IMG/VR virus record: IMGVR_UViG_3300017917_002740
Location: 30,390 to 94,389 of that record
Direction: 5' to 3' (one strand)
DNA length: 64,000 nucleotides
Source of the DNA: a virus
Shown here piece by piece: positions 369-30,410 of this stretch (positions within the stretch are counted from its first letter, which is position 1; each line of letters opens with the position of its first letter). Position numbers and translations under genes: made by a program. The notes under the pieces were generated by a model. The model did not search any database. It was not told where the DNA came from and was given only the letters and a program-made list of their open reading frames with translations.

Positions 369-2845
369 ACTCCGTAACGATTTCTTGTTGCGTTAAAGTT
401 TTGTAGTACTTCGCCTGCTGTGAGTTCTTTACCGTAGCAGAGTACACGACCAATCTTACCGTTCAGCAAGTTCCCGCCAATACCAAAGCAGGCAATATTA
501 GTGTTGCCATTTTGATTGTGCGGAGTTTGATAACTTAGATTTTGTGTGTCTAAAACACCATTTACATAAAGTTTTATACCGTTGGCCACGCTGAATGTTA
601 CAGTAGCACAGTACCAAGTATCGGTATTAAATGTCATAACAGATCCAAACGCATTATAGGGAAAAACGTTACTGTGACCAGCATACAGAGTCGTGCTTTG
701 ATTAAAATACATAAAGTGTCCGCCATTGTCGCTGCTGACTAAGTTATTATCTGCTGAAAATGTGTCGATTTTGAACCATACCATTTTGGTATAGGCTGCT
801 TGAGGTATGATATTAGAACCGGCTACGGTAGCATATTGATTTACACCATCGAAGTTAAAATATCCTGGAGGACCATTGTCCCAGTATGGATTGTTAAGTA
901 ATGTAGCATTGTTACCAAGGCCTGAAAGGTCGGTCCAGGTAGTGCCTGTGCCACTGTAACTTGTGGTATTATTAGCATCAAGATTTAATGTAAGACTGTC
1001 AGTGGCGATACCATCAATATCAAAGGCCCAGTCCACACTGGCACCATAGTTAATACGATCACCTGCGTCAAAGCGGATACTACCACCATAGGTTGGAGGC
1101 AGATATGTAAAGGTTAGACCACCTGCTGTACCAGGATCAAAGTTTACACCTATTCGAATTATTTCTGGAGTGATAAGATAAGCATTGGCTCTGACAGTTC
1201 CTAATATATCTTCACCGTAGGCCACAGTCCAGCCTGTTCTAACTTTTAATAGTTCTACGTTAAAGTTAGTACTGCTATAGTCTACTACATAAGTGGTAGG
1301 GCTATTGCCACCGTAGGTATTAGTAGCTTGTGTTACACTGGTGAGGTCTTCAGAAACAGTATATACAAGTTCAGGCGGTGTGCTTGCTGGTAGGCTTGAA
1401 AACTGTAGGTTACCAAAATAATTTGGATCAATGATATAGTCACTCCAACCTGCCCCGTCACTGACCAAGAGACCAACTCGCAAATTAGGTGGATATGGCG
1501 TAGGTGTTATGAGATTATTGCCATATCCTATAGCAGTGAATGTAGCACCTGGATATGTAAATGGATCATCTTCACTGTAAGTTGGTGTATTGCTCAGTAT
1601 AGCAGCCTTGTAACTTACAACATCATCAAAGGCTGTGCCAGAACTCATTGCTGGTAGGAGGAACACAGTACCAGTCTGCGGCTGTACGGGTAATACAGGC
1701 ACAGAGAAGTTTGTAGTATATTTGGCGTATCCTTTGATGATATGTAGGTCTTTGATGTAACCTTGGAAGTTACCGTTAGGTATCTCGCCTGTGCCTACCA
1801 CGAGCTCTGCGTTGGTAGCAGTGATAGCTTGATTGGCATAGGGCCATGACATATACTCGCTACCATTTGAATAGAGTTTTACTGTGTTGTCTTTACGCAC
1901 TATGGCCATGTGTTCCCAACCTATGCCGTAGTGATTTTTCAAAGGTCTATATTCTTGTTGTGCAGGGAAACCGTTGTTGATCCAGAAAAAATCTCTGCCA
2001 ACACCTTCATAACTTAGACTTACTACCTGTCCAGAAGCAGAATTTAATAAACCGATACACCAAGGTCGAGTATTTACACCAATGGCTTCTGCTTTCTGCC
2101 ACCACTCAATGGTAAAGTCATCATAGATAAACTGTTGTGGTGCTTCGTACTTACTTCTTGTAGAATCATAGTTACTGGCTGTGTTGCCAAAGTCCAATCT
2201 AAATTCTGCCAGCATACCCTGATATCGGGCACTGATTCCATTGTTGGTTATGCTGGTTGTACCAAATCCTGCCACAAATGGATTGCCTTGTAACTCCCAG
2301 GAATGGGTGGCTGTGACCGCTGTTCCGCCGTTCAACTGTAGCAGAGCCTGTGTGCCGTTGTGTCTAAAGTAGATATGATTCCATTCATTGAGATTTACTG
2401 TGTTAGCAGTGGTCATTGGACCGATGTTCATACCTGCCCAGAATCCGCCAGTGATAGTATTATTGCCATTTATAGTCAAGGCAGCGTGATGGTAGTTAAC
2501 GTTTTCTGTAGTCTGTCCCTGTATGGTCATTAGTATGCGGCCATTAGCAGTGGGATAGAACCAAATGTTCATATAGACCTGGCTAACGTTGCTGAACACA
2601 CCAGTGGTCATTAACTGATTAGTGCCATTAAAATCCCACATCTGACCGGTGGTCATATTGTCAGGAAACGTGTAATTAGAATTGTAAAAAGGTTTGTCAG
2701 GATCTATACCTGCGGATCCCCAGACTATGGGAGAACCATCCCAGAAGTGTGTGCCGTCTGGAGAAACACCACCCCCGCCTCCACCCCCGCCACCACCCGC
2801 GGATATGGTTAGATTAGTGCCTATAATCGCTTGTATAATGCTCAC
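365..2845 (-). CDS. Virion/tail protein with about three LamG (concanavalin A-like) domains
   Basis: 826 aa with a poly-Gly linker near the N-terminus. LamG-type segments: WNHIYFRHNG..LQLNG, FTIEWW..WEHMAIVRK..LYSNG..IKDLHIIKG, and LNLDA..WTDLSG..LYVNG..QNFNA. Confidence 0.8.
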   Translation of the reverse strand: MSIIQAIIGTNLTISAGGGGGGGGGGVSPDGTHFWDGSPIVWGSAGIDPDKPFYNSNYTFPDNMTTGQMWDFNGTNQLMTTGVFSNVSQVYMNIWFYPTANGRILMTIQGQTTENVNYHHAALTINGNNTITGGFWAGMNIGPMTTANTVNLNEWNHIYFRHNGTQALLQLNGGTAVTATHSWELQGNPFVAGFGTTSITNNGISARYQGMLAEFRLDFGNTASNYDSTRSKYEAPQQFIYDDFTIEWWQKAEAIGVNTRPWCIGLLNSASGQVVSLSYEGVGRDFFWINNGFPAQQEYRPLKNHYGIGWEHMAIVRKDNTVKLYSNGSEYMSWPYANQAITATNAELVVGTGEIPNGNFQGYIKDLHIIKGYAKYTTNFSVPVLPVQPQTGTVFLLPAMSSGTAFDDVVSYKAAILSNTPTYSEDDPFTYPGATFTAIGYGNNLITPTPYPPNLRVGLLVSDGAGWSDYIIDPNYFGNLQFSSLPASTPPELVYTVSEDLTSVTQATNTYGGNSPTTYVVDYSSTNFNVELLKVRTGWTVAYGEDILGTVRANAYLITPEIIRIGVNFDPGTAGGLTFTYLPPTYGGSIRFDAGDRINYGASVDWAFDIDGIATDSLTLNLDANNTTSYSGTGTTWTDLSGLGNNATLLNNPYWDNGPPGYFNFDGVNQYATVAGSNIIPQAAYTKMVWFKIDTFSADNNLVSSDNGGHFMYFNQSTTLYAGHSNVFPYNAFGSVMTFNTDTWYCATVTFSVANGIKLYVNGVLDTQNLSYQTPHNQNGNTNIACFGIGGNLLNGKIGRVLCYGKELTAGEVLQNFNATRNRYGV

Positions 2846-2854
2846 AGCAGATCC

Positions 2855-5800
2855 TTAATCGTTGTCGTAGATGTCACCCGGGCCACTGACAATCCATACA
2901 TCTGGATAATCAGCATCGTTGTCGCTGGCACTCATAATGTAGCCTTCTTTGATTTTTAAGAATGTGACCATGCTTCCCGAACCCGAATCTGGAATACCAA
3001 TTACATAAGTTTCTATATTTCGTCCTGCCAGTTTCAATCTACCACGATTACTTGGGCCGGATTGACATTGTATGTAACAATCTGAACCTGTGGTATTAAC
3101 TAATGTAAATGTAAATCCTACAGGTAAAGTTTTTAACTGCCAATGCGGAATATAAACCCAACCATTCTCGTGTTCGTAGAATATGTGCTTGCCCGAATCC
3201 TGTTCTGTTAGATAATAATCATTAGCTGCAGGAATCTGCGGAATAACATTGGTAGCAAAACTTTGTTTGCTGCCGTCACCAAATTCTAAATACCCTGCGC
3301 TGTCATCGGTGATAGTATATGTCCATACTTTCAGTTCTCCGTCTGGTGCTCTGGTCACATAGTTGCGAGCATCAACAGTATTAGTAATAGTGTCAATGTG
3401 TTGATCTGCTGTGAATGATTCAAACGCTGGAGTAACAGTGGTCACGTTGACTGTGTGACGATTCATGATATGCTCACCAATGTTCCATCTTTCATCTATA
3501 TCAATATTAACTAAACCGTCTAACGGCAATTTCATTAGCAGAGAGTTGTAGTAGTTATCTGTAGGCACATAGGTATAGCCCGCCATGACAACATAATCTC
3601 CTGTGGCATCCGAGTAGATGTCGGTGAAATTAGCCGTAGGTGTGTTGTAATAGACTCTATTTCCGTTACCGTCTGAACTGAATACCCTGTGACGAATCAC
3701 CGTACCATTGTCCGGGTTGATAATCATATAGGCCAGTCCGGAATTATTATTATTGGTTCCTTGCTCAAAACTTACAACGATGTTGTTACCTAAGGGCTTG
3801 AGGCTGATTTCTGGATCTACCCATTCTGCGACACCTTGTGCTTCCATTGCGTAGGTCTTTTGCCATACTGCTGTGCCTGCCGCAGTAATCCTTGTAAGGA
3901 TAATTTCACTGCTTTCACCGCCGTACCATTCACCGCCTACCATGATATCTGTGCTGTTGGGTACAAGACATACCGCACGGGCTTGTCTATTAACAGTTGT
4001 GGCTTCAGTGAACTTGATGTCCTTGCTCCAAACTATAGAACCATCTGTAGCATCAAATTTAACTACCAATGCTTGATCGTAGTTGGTTTCGTAACGTCCA
4101 CGACCTACTGCGTACAAGGCTGTGCCGTCCGCACTCCAGGTAACATCGTAGAATCTATCACTGTTACCACCACCTATGGCATTGGTCCAGGTAGGTGTCC
4201 ATACGAATGCTTCGCCGCCCAAGTTCTGACGCATTGACCACGAACCACCTGGAGCACTAAAGTCAACACCATCTACACGGATTTTTAATACATTTGTTGG
4301 ACCAGTTCCTGATATTGTGCCTCCTGTAATGGAGTTTATACCACCACCGCCACCAACTGAAAATATGGTTAATGTGGCATCGTTGGCAGGACTTGTGCCA
4401 CCGCCAAACAAACTGCCGGCAATGGTTAGAACATCACCTGCTACATAATTAGATCCAGGATCGTTAATTCCATTATATGAGAAACTGCCATCTGCTGGGT
4501 TAATATAAACGGAAATTTGTGCTCCACTACCAGTTTGATAGTTGGTGCCTGTGACATTATTATAAGTGCCGCCACCGACATCACCACCGGTTCCCGAAAT
4601 AGATACTGCTTCAATTGATCCGCCTGCACCTATTTCTGTTACTTCAATAATAGCATCATTGGCAGGTGTAGCACCGCCCAAGGCAGTACCTAATATTTTA
4701 ATCTTATGTCCTACCAGATAGTTTGTACCTTTGTTAGGAACTGTGGCTAAAGCACTGACATAGGCAAGACCATCTCCTGCTGAAACAACTTGAAATTCTG
4801 CTCCGCTACCTTGGCGTACTGTGGTTGCGAGACTGGTGTATTGATTAACTCCATCTACATTGTTCTGTCCATTGATTCCTGTACCTGTGACCCAAAAATC
4901 CGAATAGTTGTCATAAGGACTACCTGGATAGTGTTCGGCGTCTATTTCTGATTTCAGTATGTAAAAATATCCGTCCAATCCATTAAGTATTGACAGTAGG
5001 CCAAACTCACGGTATTCGTTGTACTTCTCACCAACTATGGCAATACCGCCATCAACCTCTAATGTAGCAATACTGTTGGGGAAGATATCGCCTTCATCAC
5101 TGAGTGTAACAGTTTCCTCTATAACACCAGTAAGCGGATTTATGAAATAGACATTAGCCCAAGTCCAGAAGTTGTCTTGTGCGTCGCCTCGACCAGTGCT
5201 ATATTCTGTAGTTACTATAAGTTTATCGTTAAAATCGTCGTAGGCAATAGCACAGACATCGCCTTGGATATCATCGTAAAATGATGAAATAGTTGAATTA
5301 TATGTAAGGATGCCGACATCGTAGCCCGGTTTAACTGAAGCAGTAACTATTCCACCCGATCCGTCAATCGAGTTCACGATGATAATAAAATTGTTGTTCC
5401 AACCACCACCAATCTCGTAACCCTCAAATGGGATCTCTTCGCCTACTTTGTATCCTGTACCTACTTGGGTAATACCATTAATTGTAATGGTTCCGCCGCC
5501 AATTGTTATAGCAAATGTTGCTCCACGTCCTGCGGTAATTTGTTTGACCCATACTTGCTCACCTGTACGAATATCAAACTTATAAATCTTGGCATTATCG
5601 TTGCTGTTGTCGATATAGTAGTCACTGCCCAAGACATAAGCATAGTTGCCACGCACTACCACGCTCTCAAACCAAGCGTCGTCATCATTGTTAGGACGAT
5701 CACCTACGAGGTTGATGAAGCCTTTTATGGTATTGGGTATTGATGGAGTGCCGCCACCTAATACACTTTGTCCACTGCTGTTAAGAATGTCGCCACCTGA

Positions 5801-19123: not shown

Positions 19124-19152
19124 ATTATAACACTGTTAGTGCCAATTGTCAA
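19124..19152 (-). promoter_or_regulatory. Consensus sigma70 (early) promoter
   Basis: TTGACA (19147-19152), 17-nt spacer, TATAAT (19124-19129) on the minus strand. Confidence 0.85.
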
Positions 19153-19939
19153 CTACAAATTTATCCTGAACGTCTTGTGGTTTGGGTTCGCCGTGAAACA
19201 CAGTTACACAGCAGTCTGGATGCACTTCTACTGAGTGATCTGTTTCTTTGAACTGTCTTTTACCATTTAATACTACCAATTCTTCTCTACTACGTATTTC
19301 CCATTTGTAACTTTGGATCCATTCTTTGGGCCAAAATTTTATCTGTGTCTGGCATAGTTTCCAAATCCAATCTTGATCACCTTGAAGTTTTTGAGCTTCT
19401 TTGGGATTCTCTTTAAATTTTTCCCAGATATGATGCTGAGTACCGTGATTCCAAGCCATTACAGAACTATTCAAATATTTCCATGATGCATAAAATTTTC
19501 TGTTGAAATCGTGTATTCCTAAAAATTCTGTAGGATATATTTTGGCCAACTTGTCTATGTTGTTATGAATAACTACGTCTAAGTCGAAATAAAGAATTCT
19601 TCCCCGTAATGGTAATCTTGCATCAAACATATGAACCTTATGCCACCAACCCTTTTGATATTGTGCATTAGGTTGATAAATGGTAGTAACACCTTCAATG
19701 TGATGTTGATCGTCGGTTAAACAATAAAATTCGTAGGGTACAGTAAGATGTCGCGAAACCATATTTCGCAAACGTTCTACATATTCCTTACTATATCGAT
19801 TACCAAATCTTACGCAAAGAACATTAATTTTCTCAGTGGAGTTTCCAAATAGCTCTGATAAATCTTCTGGAGAACTATTACCTTTGGCTAATCTTTTTTC
19901 AGCTTTAAGCCTGCGCTTTTCTTCTTTTGACAATTCCAT
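19136..19939 (-). CDS. GT-A fold glycosyltransferase (GT8-like)
   Basis: DxD motif YFDLDVVI, plus NSSVM, GDQDWI and VFHGEPKP. Confidence 0.7.
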   Translation of the reverse strand: MELSKEEKRRLKAEKRLAKGNSSPEDLSELFGNSTEKINVLCVRFGNRYSKEYVERLRNMVSRHLTVPYEFYCLTDDQHHIEGVTTIYQPNAQYQKGWWHKVHMFDARLPLRGRILYFDLDVVIHNNIDKLAKIYPTEFLGIHDFNRKFYASWKYLNSSVMAWNHGTQHHIWEKFKENPKEAQKLQGDQDWIWKLCQTQIKFWPKEWIQSYKWEIRSREELVVLNGKRQFKETDHSVEVHPDCCVTVFHGEPKPQDVQDKFVVDNWH

Positions 19940-20744
19940 CGATTTCTATCAGTTCTTCCAAAATGTTGTAAAGATTATCAATTTTAATCATATTAGGTCC
20001 GTCGCTGGGAGCGTTATCTGGATCTTCGTGGCACTCCATGAAAATGCCTGCAACTGATCCGGTAGCTACAGCGGCCCTCGCCAAGTAGGGTACCATCTCG
20101 CGATCTCCGCCTGAGACTGTTCCCATTCCGCCAGGCTGCTGTACAGAATGTGTTGCATCAAAGACAACGGGATAACCAGTACGTTCCATAATAGGTAAAC
20201 TGCGCATGTCAACCACAAGATTATTGTATCCATGAGTATATCCTCTTTCACAAAGCATGATGCGTTCATTACCAGTTGATGCTATCTTGGCTGCAACGTT
20301 TTTCATATCATGCGGAGCAAGGAACTGTCCTTTTTTAATATTAATAGCTCGACCAGTATTTCCAGCAGCCAAAAGCAAGTCGGTCTGTCTGCAAAGAAAA
20401 GCAGGAATTTGTATAACATCAACTCCGGCATCTGCTATTAATTCTGCTTGATAGGATTCATGAATATCTGTAAGTACAGGAATACCAAACTCGTGTTTAA
20501 TTGAATTAAGTACCTTAAGGCCTTCATCGATACCTATTCCTCGTTTAGTTCCTATACTGCTTCTGTTGGCTTTATCGAAACTGCTTTTATAGATAAGATC
20601 AATATCTAATTTATCGCAGATATCTTTGATACGACCTGCAGTTTCTTCTGCATGATCTTGGCTTTCTATTTGACAGGGACCAGCAATGAGAAAAAATTTA
20701 TTTTCATTGCTGGCAACGATTCGGTTAATTGAAAATGTACGCAT
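19905..20744 (-). CDS. kdsA: 3-deoxy-D-manno-octulosonate 8-phosphate synthase
   Basis: IAGPCQIES, KSSFDKANRSS, QIPAFLCRQTDL, IKKGQF, DATHSVQ and SDGP motifs. Start revised to ATG 20744. Confidence 0.95.
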   Translation of the reverse strand: MRTFSINRIVASNENKFFLIAGPCQIESQDHAEETAGRIKDICDKLDIDLIYKSSFDKANRSSIGTKRGIGIDEGLKVLNSIKHEFGIPVLTDIHESYQAELIADAGVDVIQIPAFLCRQTDLLLAAGNTGRAINIKKGQFLAPHDMKNVAAKIASTGNERIMLCERGYTHGYNNLVVDMRSLPIMERTGYPVVFDATHSVQQPGGMGTVSGGDREMVPYLARAAVATGSVAGIFMECHEDPDNAPSDGPNMIKIDNLYNILEELIEIDGIVKRRKAQA

Positions 20745-20766
20745 ATAATTATTTATGCGGAAATTT

Positions 20767-21252
20767 TTAACCTTCGTAGGTTGCTGAGTTAGCACCGTGT
20801 TCAAATACTTCAACAGATTTAATACGCACAGTTGGATTGATTGGATAGCGCATATTTCCTCCGGCTAATAGTTCAGCCATCTTGTCGAAGCACAATTTAG
20901 CAAACATTTCGCAGCCAACAGCCGGAACAATTCGTAGATCGCAGATGCCGCTGTCATTAAAGCCACCTTTGATTTCATTTAACTGTTTGAACAGTTCTAA
21001 ATGAGGATCATCTTCTGCAACAACTAAGGTGTGATCAAACATGTAATCGGCCCAAGTTTTAAATTCCTTAAGACCACCAAAGTCCATACACCAATTTTTG
21101 TCATCTAACGTATCGCACTCAAATATAAGTTTGATGCCGATCGAGTAACCATGCAGCGTCGAGCAATGACTGTGAGTGGCACGCCATTGTCTAAAGCAGC
21201 AACTCAGACCTCTGTCGTTGCCATATGTTTTTGTTGAATAAAATTTCGCCAT
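20767..21252 (-). CDS. queD: 6-carboxytetrahydropterin synthase / PTPS family
   Basis: HCSTLHGY, DFGGLK, FDH, GCEMFA and EVFE motifs. AGGAGG SD. Confidence 0.8.
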   Translation of the reverse strand: MAKFYSTKTYGNDRGLSCCFRQWRATHSHCSTLHGYSIGIKLIFECDTLDDKNWCMDFGGLKEFKTWADYMFDHTLVVAEDDPHLELFKQLNEIKGGFNDSGICDLRIVPAVGCEMFAKLCFDKMAELLAGGNMRYPINPTVRIKSVEVFEHGANSATYEG

Positions 21253-21284
21253 CTCTTGCCTCCTGTAAATTAAGCGAGTAAGTT

Positions 21285-21337
21285 TGATGACTTGCAGAAT
21301 ATTTAAAGAGGGTTGAAAGTCATTGAAGTCCTCTATA
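21285..21337 (-). ncRNA. Candidate preQ1-I-like H-type pseudoknot (riboswitch?) in the queD 5' UTR
   Basis: P1 is AGAGG (21330-34) with CCUCU (21307-11). The loop AUGACUU (21317-23) is complementary to downstream AAGUCAU (21287-93). Confidence 0.45.
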
Positions 21338-21340
21338 GAA

Positions 21341-21979
21341 CTATTGTACTACAGAACTATTTATGAAATCAACCTCAAGTTGAGCAATGTTCTTGAAATT
21401 AACATTTGATCTTTGCCAATCTTGAGGAGTTATCCAATCGGATTTGTTGAAGATATTAAATTTAATATTAGGATAATGAATGAAAATTTGAGAAATTTGA
21501 TAAACCCAATACGAATAGTCTACAGCCTGCGAACCAGCTTTGGCATAATTACTCGTATTTTTATAGATGTTATTAACTTTTTCATTATTGGGATATAGAT
21601 CAAAACCTAATAAGTCAACATTTTCGAAACCTAAATGTGCTGCCAACAACACAGCATAACAACCACTACCCCAGTGATCTGGTTGATCTCTTTTCAGTTC
21701 TCCAATTTTTGGTATTGGCGGAAGATGACAAATATTTTTATTTTTTAATATTTTGCGAAAATAATGATACCAGTTATCTCGAACGTATATTTGAGTGTTT
21801 TCAATATTGGGATTTTTTACAGCTTCGTCGGCCATTCTTCGATCACAGCAGATAAGATGATCAACTTTATAATCTCTATGAATAGCGTTACAGCCTATGA
21901 TAGTGTAATGGGATTGCCAAGTGGTTAGGTTTATATTTTTACGACTTTCGCCGTTGCCTACTACTAATGCTTGAGACAT
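21341..21979 (-). CDS. Rossmann-like protein, MptE/MAF (DUF115)-like
   Basis: LVVGNGESR, IGCNA, GSG..A..LA..LGF..LLGFD pattern. Confidence 0.5.
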   Translation of the reverse strand: MSQALVVGNGESRKNINLTTWQSHYTIIGCNAIHRDYKVDHLICCDRRMADEAVKNPNIENTQIYVRDNWYHYFRKILKNKNICHLPPIPKIGELKRDQPDHWGSGCYAVLLAAHLGFENVDLLGFDLYPNNEKVNNIYKNTSNYAKAGSQAVDYSYWVYQISQIFIHYPNIKFNIFNKSDWITPQDWQRSNVNFKNIAQLEVDFINSSVVQ

Positions 21980-30299: not shown

Positions 30300-30410
30300 T
30301 GGTGTGGCCGGTAGGATTCGAACCTACAGAGGCTGTGTCTAAGACGGCGCCCCATTCCCAAGTGCGTTTCGCAACGGACTGGAGGTCTACCATATTCCAC
30401 TGACGACCAC
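30300..30410 (-). ncRNA. Atypical tRNA-like RNA (Leu-like body, no canonical anticodon loop), 111 nt
   Basis: Acceptor stem GTGGTCG/CGGCCAC, A73 and encoded CCA. T arm GTAGG-TTCGAAT-CCTAC. D loop GGAATATGGTAGAC. Confidence 0.75.

Follow-up and report, generated by a model that had tools for sequence, protein, structure and literature searches.

A candidate riboswitch-like pseudoknot in the leader of a QueD-like gene of large uncultured phages

In a 64,000-nt stretch of viral DNA (positions 30,390 to 94,389 of IMG/VR record IMGVR_UViG_3300017917_002740; hereafter the window, at its full length), a gene of the 6-pyruvoyl-tetrahydropterin synthase (PTPS)/QueD-like family is preceded on the minus strand by a leader that forms an H-type pseudoknot. 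We consider this leader to be a cis-acting regulatory RNA, most likely a riboswitch and a candidate ON switch on translation of the QueD-like protein, with a probability of roughly 60%. The element lies in an 88-nt spacer (21340-21253, minus strand) between a CST-I-like glycosyltransferase open reading frame (ORF; 21341-21979) and the PTPS/QueD-like ORF (20767-21252). Its pseudoknot covaries in related leaders and stands nearly always directly ahead of a single type of gene, and one of its strands can pair, in a mutually exclusive manner, with the region that initiates translation. From these features we infer that a ligand is bound, to what class it belongs and that the response in vivo is ON.

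Structure and covariation of the leader pseudoknot

Read on the minus strand, the leader has the order AGAGG, an 18-nt loop, CCUCU, UUAAAUAUUCUGC, AAGUCAU, a 22-nt linker, the Shine-Dalgarno (SD) sequence AGGAGG (21264-21259, read directly) and AUG. These elements, together with an upstream TAAATA box, were found as described in a sequence-only reading of the window, which had proposed a preQ1-I-like pseudoknot. The whole aptamer comprises 48 nt (21287-21334), scores 57.7 bits (E 1.9e-18) with the covariance model R1 and is the only strong R1 match in the 94-kb record; across the family, its length ranges from 42 to 49 nt. Helix P1 is formed by AGAGG (21330-21334) and CCUCU (21311-21307), and helix P2 by AUGACUU (21317-21323) in the loop and AAGUCAU (21293-21287) in the tail. 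The latter is the switching strand, which is also used by a sequestering helix described below. Loop L1, ACUUCA (21324-21329), begins with three nucleotides that fit a conserved N-C-U, of which the C and the U are invariant in the protein-anchored alignment A2, while the remaining length of L1 varies. Loop L3, UUAAAUAUUC (21297-21306), is of fixed length and has the consensus N-N-A-N-A-N-A-Y-U-C in the protein-anchored set, with invariant A residues at positions 3, 5 and 7 in addition to the terminal UC.

The loop had first been drawn as ACUUCA-AUGACUU-UCAAC, and this drawing needed correction, as the UCA assigned to L2 in fact pairs with the UGC assigned to L3. Thus, U-C-A (21314-21316) faces U-G-C (21296-21294), giving a U·C juxtaposition followed by the P2 pairs C-G and A-U, and the true L2 is reduced to an A and a C (21313-21312), the C being invariant in A2 and placed directly 5' of the P1 3' strand. 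One protein-anchored leader carried two joint changes, UCA to UCG in the former L2 and UCUGC to UCCGC in the former L3. IMG/VR was therefore scanned for the four combinations of the pair numbered 23-41, and matches were filtered for P1 complementarity and the N-C-U start of L1. True motifs made up at least 98 of the 116 matches listed for A-U and at least 69 of the 120 listed for G-C; the complete IMG/VR scan yielded 1 true motif in 116 for A·C and 0 to 1 in 71 for G·U. A-U and G-C each occurred on four P1 backgrounds, which does not fit a single clade split. These counts indicate that P2 runs on across the invariant U·C into C-G and R-Y pairs, so that it consists of 4 to 7 bp, the U·C and two further pairs, and leaves a true L2 of just N-C.

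To examine conservation, the IMG/VR database was searched with the PTPS sequence, and leaders were taken from the best 80 (77-93% identity) of 346 relatives. The same element was present at 77 of these 80 closest PTPS loci. The other three (L031, L036 and L037), with PTPS homologues of 88-89% identity, are without the leader, and their gene is fused to the upstream ORF. The 55 unique leaders contained double substitutions in both P1 and P2, and 92% of their pair cells were paired, whereas column shuffling gave 79% and sliding of the partners 32-54%. On 101 unique sequences, P1 was paired in 98.4% of cells, with compensatory changes at four of its five pairs and no one-sided change, and it occurred in eight combinations (AGAGG/CCUCU, AGCGG/CCGCU, AGUGG/CCACU, UGCGG/CCGCA, ACCGG/CCGGU, AUCGG/CCGAU, AGUCG/CGACU and GGCGG/CCGCU). 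Likewise, P2 appeared as AUGACUU/AAGUCAU, GGCAU/AUGCC, GGCG/CGCC, GACGC/GUGUC, GGUG/CACC and GUGU/ACAC, and its pairs k1 to k5, numbered outward from the junction, were 69-92% paired with many pair types.

The full pseudoknot was then counted on 95 distinct sequences in an alignment fitted to P1 only. In this set 95.1% of cells were paired, compared with 81.3% in shuffles and 26-54% with slid 3' partners; double changes were seen at 10 of the 12 pseudoknot pairs, and the number of double-change cells was 174, where shuffles gave 50.5. The helices also admit G·U pairs, a tolerance that suits RNA better than DNA. In sets derived from a pattern some invariance arises by construction, and only the protein-anchored alignments A1 and A2 are free of that bias. 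The single-sequence fold of the leader was no better than chance (minimum free energy [MFE] of -15.1 kcal/mol against a shuffled mean of -15.6 kcal/mol, z 0.17). Overall, both P1 and P2 are kept by compensatory changes in homologous leaders, and the proposed pseudoknot of P1 plus a loop-tail P2 is borne out.

Pairing over the initiation site and link to the PTPS gene

The MFE structure of the leader is an alternative hairpin (21248-21291, minus strand), which would represent the OFF state. It is formed by GUCAUC/GAUGGC over the AUG, CUU/AAG, and CUC.CU/AGGAG over the SD. In every linker class, the AUG or the SD finds its complement in the P2 3' strand, even as the sequences differ, with duplexes such as GCCAUUG/CAAUGGC, CCUAUG/CAUAGG(AG) and ACUCC/GGAGU, as well as GUCAUCUU with AAGAUGGC and AAGUCAUC with GAUGACUU. 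The duplex between this strand and the initiation region had a mean energy of -8.4 kcal/mol, compared with -3.9 for shuffled partners and -6.5 for partners from other classes. Moreover, covariation links the nucleotide that follows CAU to the one that precedes AUG (C-G 44, U-A 31, A-U 3, unpaired 8). The sequence-only reading had suggested instead that CCUCU might pair with the SD to give an ON-type switch. That pairing was rejected, as the P1 3' strands vary (CCGCU, CCGCA, CCACU, CCGGU, CCGAU) while the SD stays AGGAG; the ON-type platform itself is supported, acting through the P2 3' strand.

Since the P2 3' strand is common to the pseudoknot and the sequestering helix, the two cannot coexist, and stabilization of the pseudoknot should open the initiation site, predicting an ON switch. 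Nearest-neighbor energies slightly favor the sequestering helix (-7.4) over P2 (-5.9), suggesting that the pseudoknot state would need extra stabilization. In the mechanism that we propose, a 42- to 49-nt H-type pseudoknot aptamer would stand at the extreme 5' end of the mRNA for a QueD-like 6-carboxy-/6-pyruvoyl-tetrahydropterin synthase. The P2 3' strand would choose between the P2 5' strand, completing the pseudoknot, and the start codon/SD region, giving a hairpin in which initiation is blocked. A small ligand would be held at the P1-P2 junction, lined by the L1 C-U, the U·C, the L2 C and the A..A..A-Y-U-C of L3, and by stabilizing the pseudoknot it would free the AUG and the SD and turn translation on.

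The position of the element in the transcript is consistent with such an aptamer. Upstream of P1 in the window, a sigma-70-like site TTGATT-18-TACAAT (21367-21372 and 21343-21348, minus strand) matches 9 of 12 consensus positions, and its -10-like hexamer ends 8 nt before P1; the call is a consensus match only, and such sites are no commoner in the region than in its shuffles. The TAAATA box (21358-21363) lies 23 nt before P1 in the window. Across 181 motif instances, a TAAATA box is found upstream in 86, most often 5-9 nt before P1, and a TAYAAT box in 66, its end most often 7-8 nt before P1 and often accompanied by a good TTGACA at a spacing of 16-17 nt. The box positions suggest that the mRNA probably begins at P1 or within a few nucleotides of it.

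The link to the PTPS gene was seen from both directions. Six genomes searched whole each contained one strong R1 copy (51-69 bits; the runner-up reached 15 bits), always directly 5' of the PTPS gene. When IMG/VR was scanned for the conserved core with no reference to genes, 73 of the 80 loci listed were true by R1, and among the matches listed, the ORF starting 12-33 nt downstream was a PTPS homologue in 72 of 72, with 29-83% identity to the window protein. The PTPS proteins behind the motif are from 147 to 196 aa long. Overall, the motif is kept in hundreds of related phages, nearly always 12-33 nt upstream of a PTPS/QueD-like gene. The loop bases of the RNA are fixed while the protein falls to about 30% identity, which argues for a conserved small-molecule partner rather than the PTPS protein.

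Additional copies of the motif were also seen. In the IMG/VR relatives L054 and L051 (1346-1396 in each), a second intact pseudoknot (51 bits) is found 1.5 kb 5' of the one at PTPS, ahead of a 208-aa radical S-adenosylmethionine (SAM) protein with a CxxxCxxC motif and with a linker without a clear SD; NCBIfam models place this protein as generic radical SAM/SPASM-like, not QueE. One copy (L424:11406-11452, minus strand), which is alone in IMG/VR in carrying A·C at pair 23-41, has no ORF of at least 60 aa behind it, and another copy with a broken P1 (L124:7-53, plus strand; 28.9 bits) precedes a methyltransferase-like ORF. These last two copies look decayed.

Outside the uncultured viral sequences, the motif is scarce. 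It was absent at the eight queD loci examined in cultured phages (Flavobacterium immuto, Cellulophaga phi13:1 and phiSM, Synechococcus BUCT-ZZ01, Sinorhizobium Phosso, PA5oct, Mendera and Microcystis Me-ZS1), none of which exceeded 10.9 bits with R1; in seven of the eight, queD abuts the upstream ORF. A blastn search of the leader against 50,697 INPHARED phage records and a megablast search of the 2-kb region gave no match. Among prokaryotes, scanned with highly specific patterns in one genome each of 185,579 species, only five instances were found (L464 to L468), all on contigs of metagenome-assembled genomes (MAGs), four of them of 4-8 kb and one of 39 kb. The bins are labeled Bacteroidetes, Crocinitomicaceae, Chitinophagales, Haliscomenobacter and Nitrospira, that is, four Bacteroidota and one Nitrospira, and four of the five were confirmed to have a PTPS homologue downstream. 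These instances are probably misbinned phage DNA, and the bins may hint at Bacteroidota hosts.

Comparison with known RNAs and weighing of explanations

The preQ1-I riboswitch is a 34-nt H-type pseudoknot with a P1 of 5-6 bp and an A-rich tail in the P1 minor groove (PMC10622847, PMC3273816), in which a conserved L2 cytidine pairs with the ligand and a conserved L1 U and L3 A contact it (PMC10622847). The phage element shares with this class (RF00522; B. subtilis queC, T. tengcongensis, E. coli type III) the H-type pseudoknot and the place in the leader of a 7-deazaguanine gene, along with a 5-bp P1, a conserved C immediately before the 3' strand of P1, the L1 U and conserved A residues of L3 that may fit along the minor groove of P1. 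C 21312 lies at the position of the preQ1-I specificity cytidine (PMC10622847) and might act as the specificity base. The L3 A residues at 3, 5 and 7 resemble the B. subtilis tail AUAAAAAACUAA (PMC3273816), but L3 is less A-rich and has an extra Y-U-C. In both RNAs, ligand-stabilized docking of the 3' tail to form P2 would be the switching event.

The differences are nonetheless considerable. The phage aptamer measures 42-49 nt rather than 34, and its P2 has 4-7 bp plus the U·C and 2 bp, compared with 3-4 bp. Its L2 is of 2 nt, it carries an invariant extra Y-U-C/Y-G-C, and its L1 starts with N-C-U and reaches up to 10 nt. Its platform predicts ON, with a P2 3' strand that is anti-AUG/anti-SD and does not contain the SD itself, and it occurs in viral contigs plus the five MAG contigs, not in complete bacterial chromosomes. 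With Rfam 15, neither the window leader nor three other variants matched any preQ1 family (classes I to III) even at E <= 10, where only chance small RNA and microRNA matches appeared; the whole window at the Rfam gathering score gave two tRNAs only. Therefore, membership of preQ1-I is not established. Likeness to that class holds for the shared topology and features and fails on the Rfam model, the size and the predicted logic. We consider that the phage element plausibly works like preQ1-I, by ligand-stabilized tail docking, and do not file it as a member.

Other RNAs resemble it more distantly. The SAM-II/SAM-V, preQ1-II, guanidine-III and fluoride riboswitches are likewise small pseudoknot aptamers whose pocket arises from loop-helix contacts, and several of them act on translation through the pseudoknot 3' strand; they differ in their conserved sequences and gene contexts, and none of their Rfam models matched here. 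The manA and wcaG motifs were reportedly described by Weinberg et al. in 2010 as orphan 5'-leader motifs, mainly from uncultured phage and marine sequences, upstream of auxiliary metabolic genes. They share with the present element a structured, phage-associated leader before such genes and an orphan ligand, but they have other folds and genes, and both are in Rfam, where neither matches here. Three general features of a riboswitch are present in the leader, namely, a covarying aptamer with invariant unpaired nucleotides, a place in the 5' untranslated region of pathway genes and a platform whose pairing excludes part of the aptamer. A literature search of incomplete coverage found no phage queD or 7-deazaguanine riboswitch and no regulator of phage 7-deazaguanine genes.

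Several points weigh against a riboswitch of the ON type. Biosynthetic genes are seldom under an ON switch, and all characterized preQ1 riboswitches are OFF switches, acting via the SD or a terminator (PMC10622847). The single-sequence fold energy is unremarkable, and the leader is missing in L031, L036 and L037, so it is dispensable, lost or replaced in some lineages. Part of the invariance in the pattern-derived sets is there by construction, and the shuffle tests overstate significance because the sequences are related. Finally, an mRNA pseudoknot in a 5'-terminal position can also serve as an operator to which a protein binds, T4 gene 32 being an example.

The last point leads to the rival that survives best, which we nevertheless hold to be unlikely: PTPS itself, or another conserved phage or host protein, would bind the leader and shift the equilibrium between pseudoknot and hairpin. 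The structural evidence is the same as for a riboswitch, and the strict one-to-one link with PTPS would also be expected from autoregulation. Precedents exist in phages and bacteria. T4 gene 32 mRNA is autoregulated through a 5' pseudoknot operator. The rpsO/S15 system provides a further pseudoknot precedent (PMC3985624), and S15 selects between pseudoknot and hairpin conformers. As proposed for the phage leader, the pseudoknot in both systems is at or near the mRNA 5' end and controls translation of the downstream gene. However, those RNAs are bound by their own nucleic-acid-binding products, whereas the product here is a metabolic enzyme of the T-fold PTPS/QueD-like type, and the phage queD RNA, unlike them, is far more conserved than its protein: PTPS falls to 29-45% identity and varies from 147 to 196 aa while the unpaired RNA bases stay invariant. 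To our knowledge, T-fold PTPS/QueD enzymes do not bind RNA. One lineage also has its full motif copy before a radical SAM gene, which argues against autoregulation by PTPS.

Less probable again is a leader that needs no ligand and tunes PTPS translation or mRNA stability through folding kinetics, temperature or 5'-end protection. Its place at the extreme 5' end and the similar energies of the two alternative folds would suit such a leader, but some 12 invariant unpaired positions, the exact loop lengths and the restriction to one enzyme family among the hundreds of genes of 230- to 355-kb genomes would be left unexplained. We rate lower still, as improbable, a true divergent preQ1-I subtype, which would bind preQ1 or preQ0 and would repress queD as the related bacterial switches do. 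The que-gene context, the H-type pseudoknot with its 5-bp P1, the C that invariably closes L2 on its 3' side, the L1 U and the alternating A residues of L3 fit this possibility; against it stand the lack of any RF00522 or other preQ1 match for the four variants, a P2 of 6-10 bp with the conserved U·C and the extra UCR/YGC, the longer L1 and overall length, and the anti-AUG/anti-SD strand, which would give ON and not OFF. An element without RNA function, whether an inverted repeat arisen by chance or a stretch of DNA conserved as, for instance, a promoter, an operator or a short upstream ORF, draws on the z-score of 0.17 and on the AUG in P2 of the window, which opens a six-codon ORF (AUGACUUUCAACCCUCUUUAA), but the AUG and stop of that ORF are absent in most relatives, and the compensatory changes that keep the pairing on one strand effectively refute it.

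Genes, pathway and meaning for the phages

The gene behind the leader (20767-21252, minus strand; ATG at 21252-21250) encodes 161 aa and belongs to the PTPS family by Pfam PF01242 (E 2.9e-15) and PHROG 2389, annotated as QueD-like (128 bits); against TIGR03367 QueD it scored 35 bits, under the cut-off of that model. The motifs HCxxxHGY, FDH and DDP are kept in divergent PTPS homologues behind the RNA motif. In E. coli QueD, the first of these reads CxxxHGH, whereas in the present subfamily its last position is Tyr, invariantly so in the homologues behind the RNA motif. This Tyr replaces the last zinc-binding His and may be the sign of a separate PTPS enzyme subfamily. Just 3' of the stop codon, a consensus scan found a terminator-like hairpin (20740-20759, minus strand); with the promoter-like site, the leader and the gene, it makes a unit that looks monocistronic in this phage.

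At 19136-21979 of the window (minus strand), the neighbors of this unit are a KdsA/DAHP-synthase-family gene, a glycosyltransferase gene and the CST-I-like sialyltransferase-family gene. No other que genes stand beside it, and its context is therefore unlike that of its relatives. The source is a 94-kb record that CheckV estimates to be about 27% complete, and relatives of up to 355 kb with terminal repeats point to a jumbo-type uncultured phage. Elsewhere in the window, about 25 kb (approximately 30500-55600; 60.9-86.0 kb of the record) holds 13 Pfam Radical_SAM matches, 11 of them above the cut-off, a density that is extraordinary for a virus.

The pathway is more visible in the relatives. 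In one of 355 kb (L012; G001:C1:136723-143205), PTPS lies among genes for a purine phosphoribosyltransferase-like protein, an RfaE-II-like nucleotidyltransferase and a HIT protein, with an ADP-heptose-epimerase-like gene and a QueE-like radical SAM gene also nearby. This mix recalls 7-deazapurine nucleoside/nucleotide pathways rather than a plain queCDE set. FolE is found 3-4 kb from PTPS in relatives, and 3.6 kb upstream in the complete 355-kb relative. Pfam models detected no QueC, FolE or tRNA-guanine transglycosylase (TGT) in the window's own record, which covers about 27% of the genome, and the QueE-like protein of the 355-kb relative had no match in it.

A 513-aa protein encoded about 27 kb before the window (record 1674-3215, minus strand), with homologues at G001:C1:127711-129225 and G002:C1:177976-179466, bears on this pathway. 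Searches against Pfam, PHROGs, PADLOC, NCBIfam and PDB sequences were negative or insignificant, and an AlphaFold2 model from a shallow alignment reached a predicted local distance difference test (pLDDT) score of 33. With 51 diverse homologues, the AlphaFold model reached a pLDDT of 91, and all 50 Foldseek matches listed for it were TGTs, at E of about 2e-7. The family conserves a DSGG(F/Y)Q motif in which the D, the S and the second G are invariant. On this model, the protein appears to be a long DpdA-like enzyme with a TGT fold that standard profiles miss. In three relatives, homologues of it are encoded at a distance of 6-10 kb from FolE and PTPS. Together, the TGT-fold protein, FolE, PTPS and the QueE-like protein suggest that the phage group very probably makes and inserts a 7-deazaguanine, a route in which the enzyme behind the leader catalyzes step two.

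As to the ligand, our first guess would be a heterocycle that presents a guanine-like face and belongs to the route that leads from GTP to pterin/7-deazaguanine, with dihydroneopterin triphosphate, 6-carboxytetrahydropterin (CPH4), 7-carboxy-7-deazaguanine (CDG), preQ0/preQ1 and guanine as candidates. A more specific proposal, which we hold tentatively and at a little under even odds, is that the leader represents a new class of ON switch, distinct from any preQ1-I subtype and confined to large uncultured phages, that senses an intermediate or by-product of the phage's 7-deazaguanine DNA modification. Its ligand would then be dihydroneopterin triphosphate, CDG/preQ0, or guanine released by the DpdA-like transglycosylase, and the phage would gate synthesis of its own QueD on the metabolic state of the infected cell.

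Virus-confined riboswitch classes are rare. With hundreds of natural variants, a length of about 45 nt and a two-state design, the element is directly testable in vitro and in E. coli reporters, and its motif sharply marks out a very abundant uncultured phage group whose genomes measure about 230-355 kb. If a ligand is bound, aptamers for guanine-like or pterin-like metabolites would gain a new fold or variant, the preQ1-I architecture would have its first ON-type counterpart, and synthetic biology would have a compact part. Overall, the leader is most likely a new riboswitch-like pseudoknot, essentially limited to phages, through which translation of a QueD-like protein is activated, and binding of a ligand would mean that these phages sense metabolites to time an anti-restriction DNA-modification pathway.

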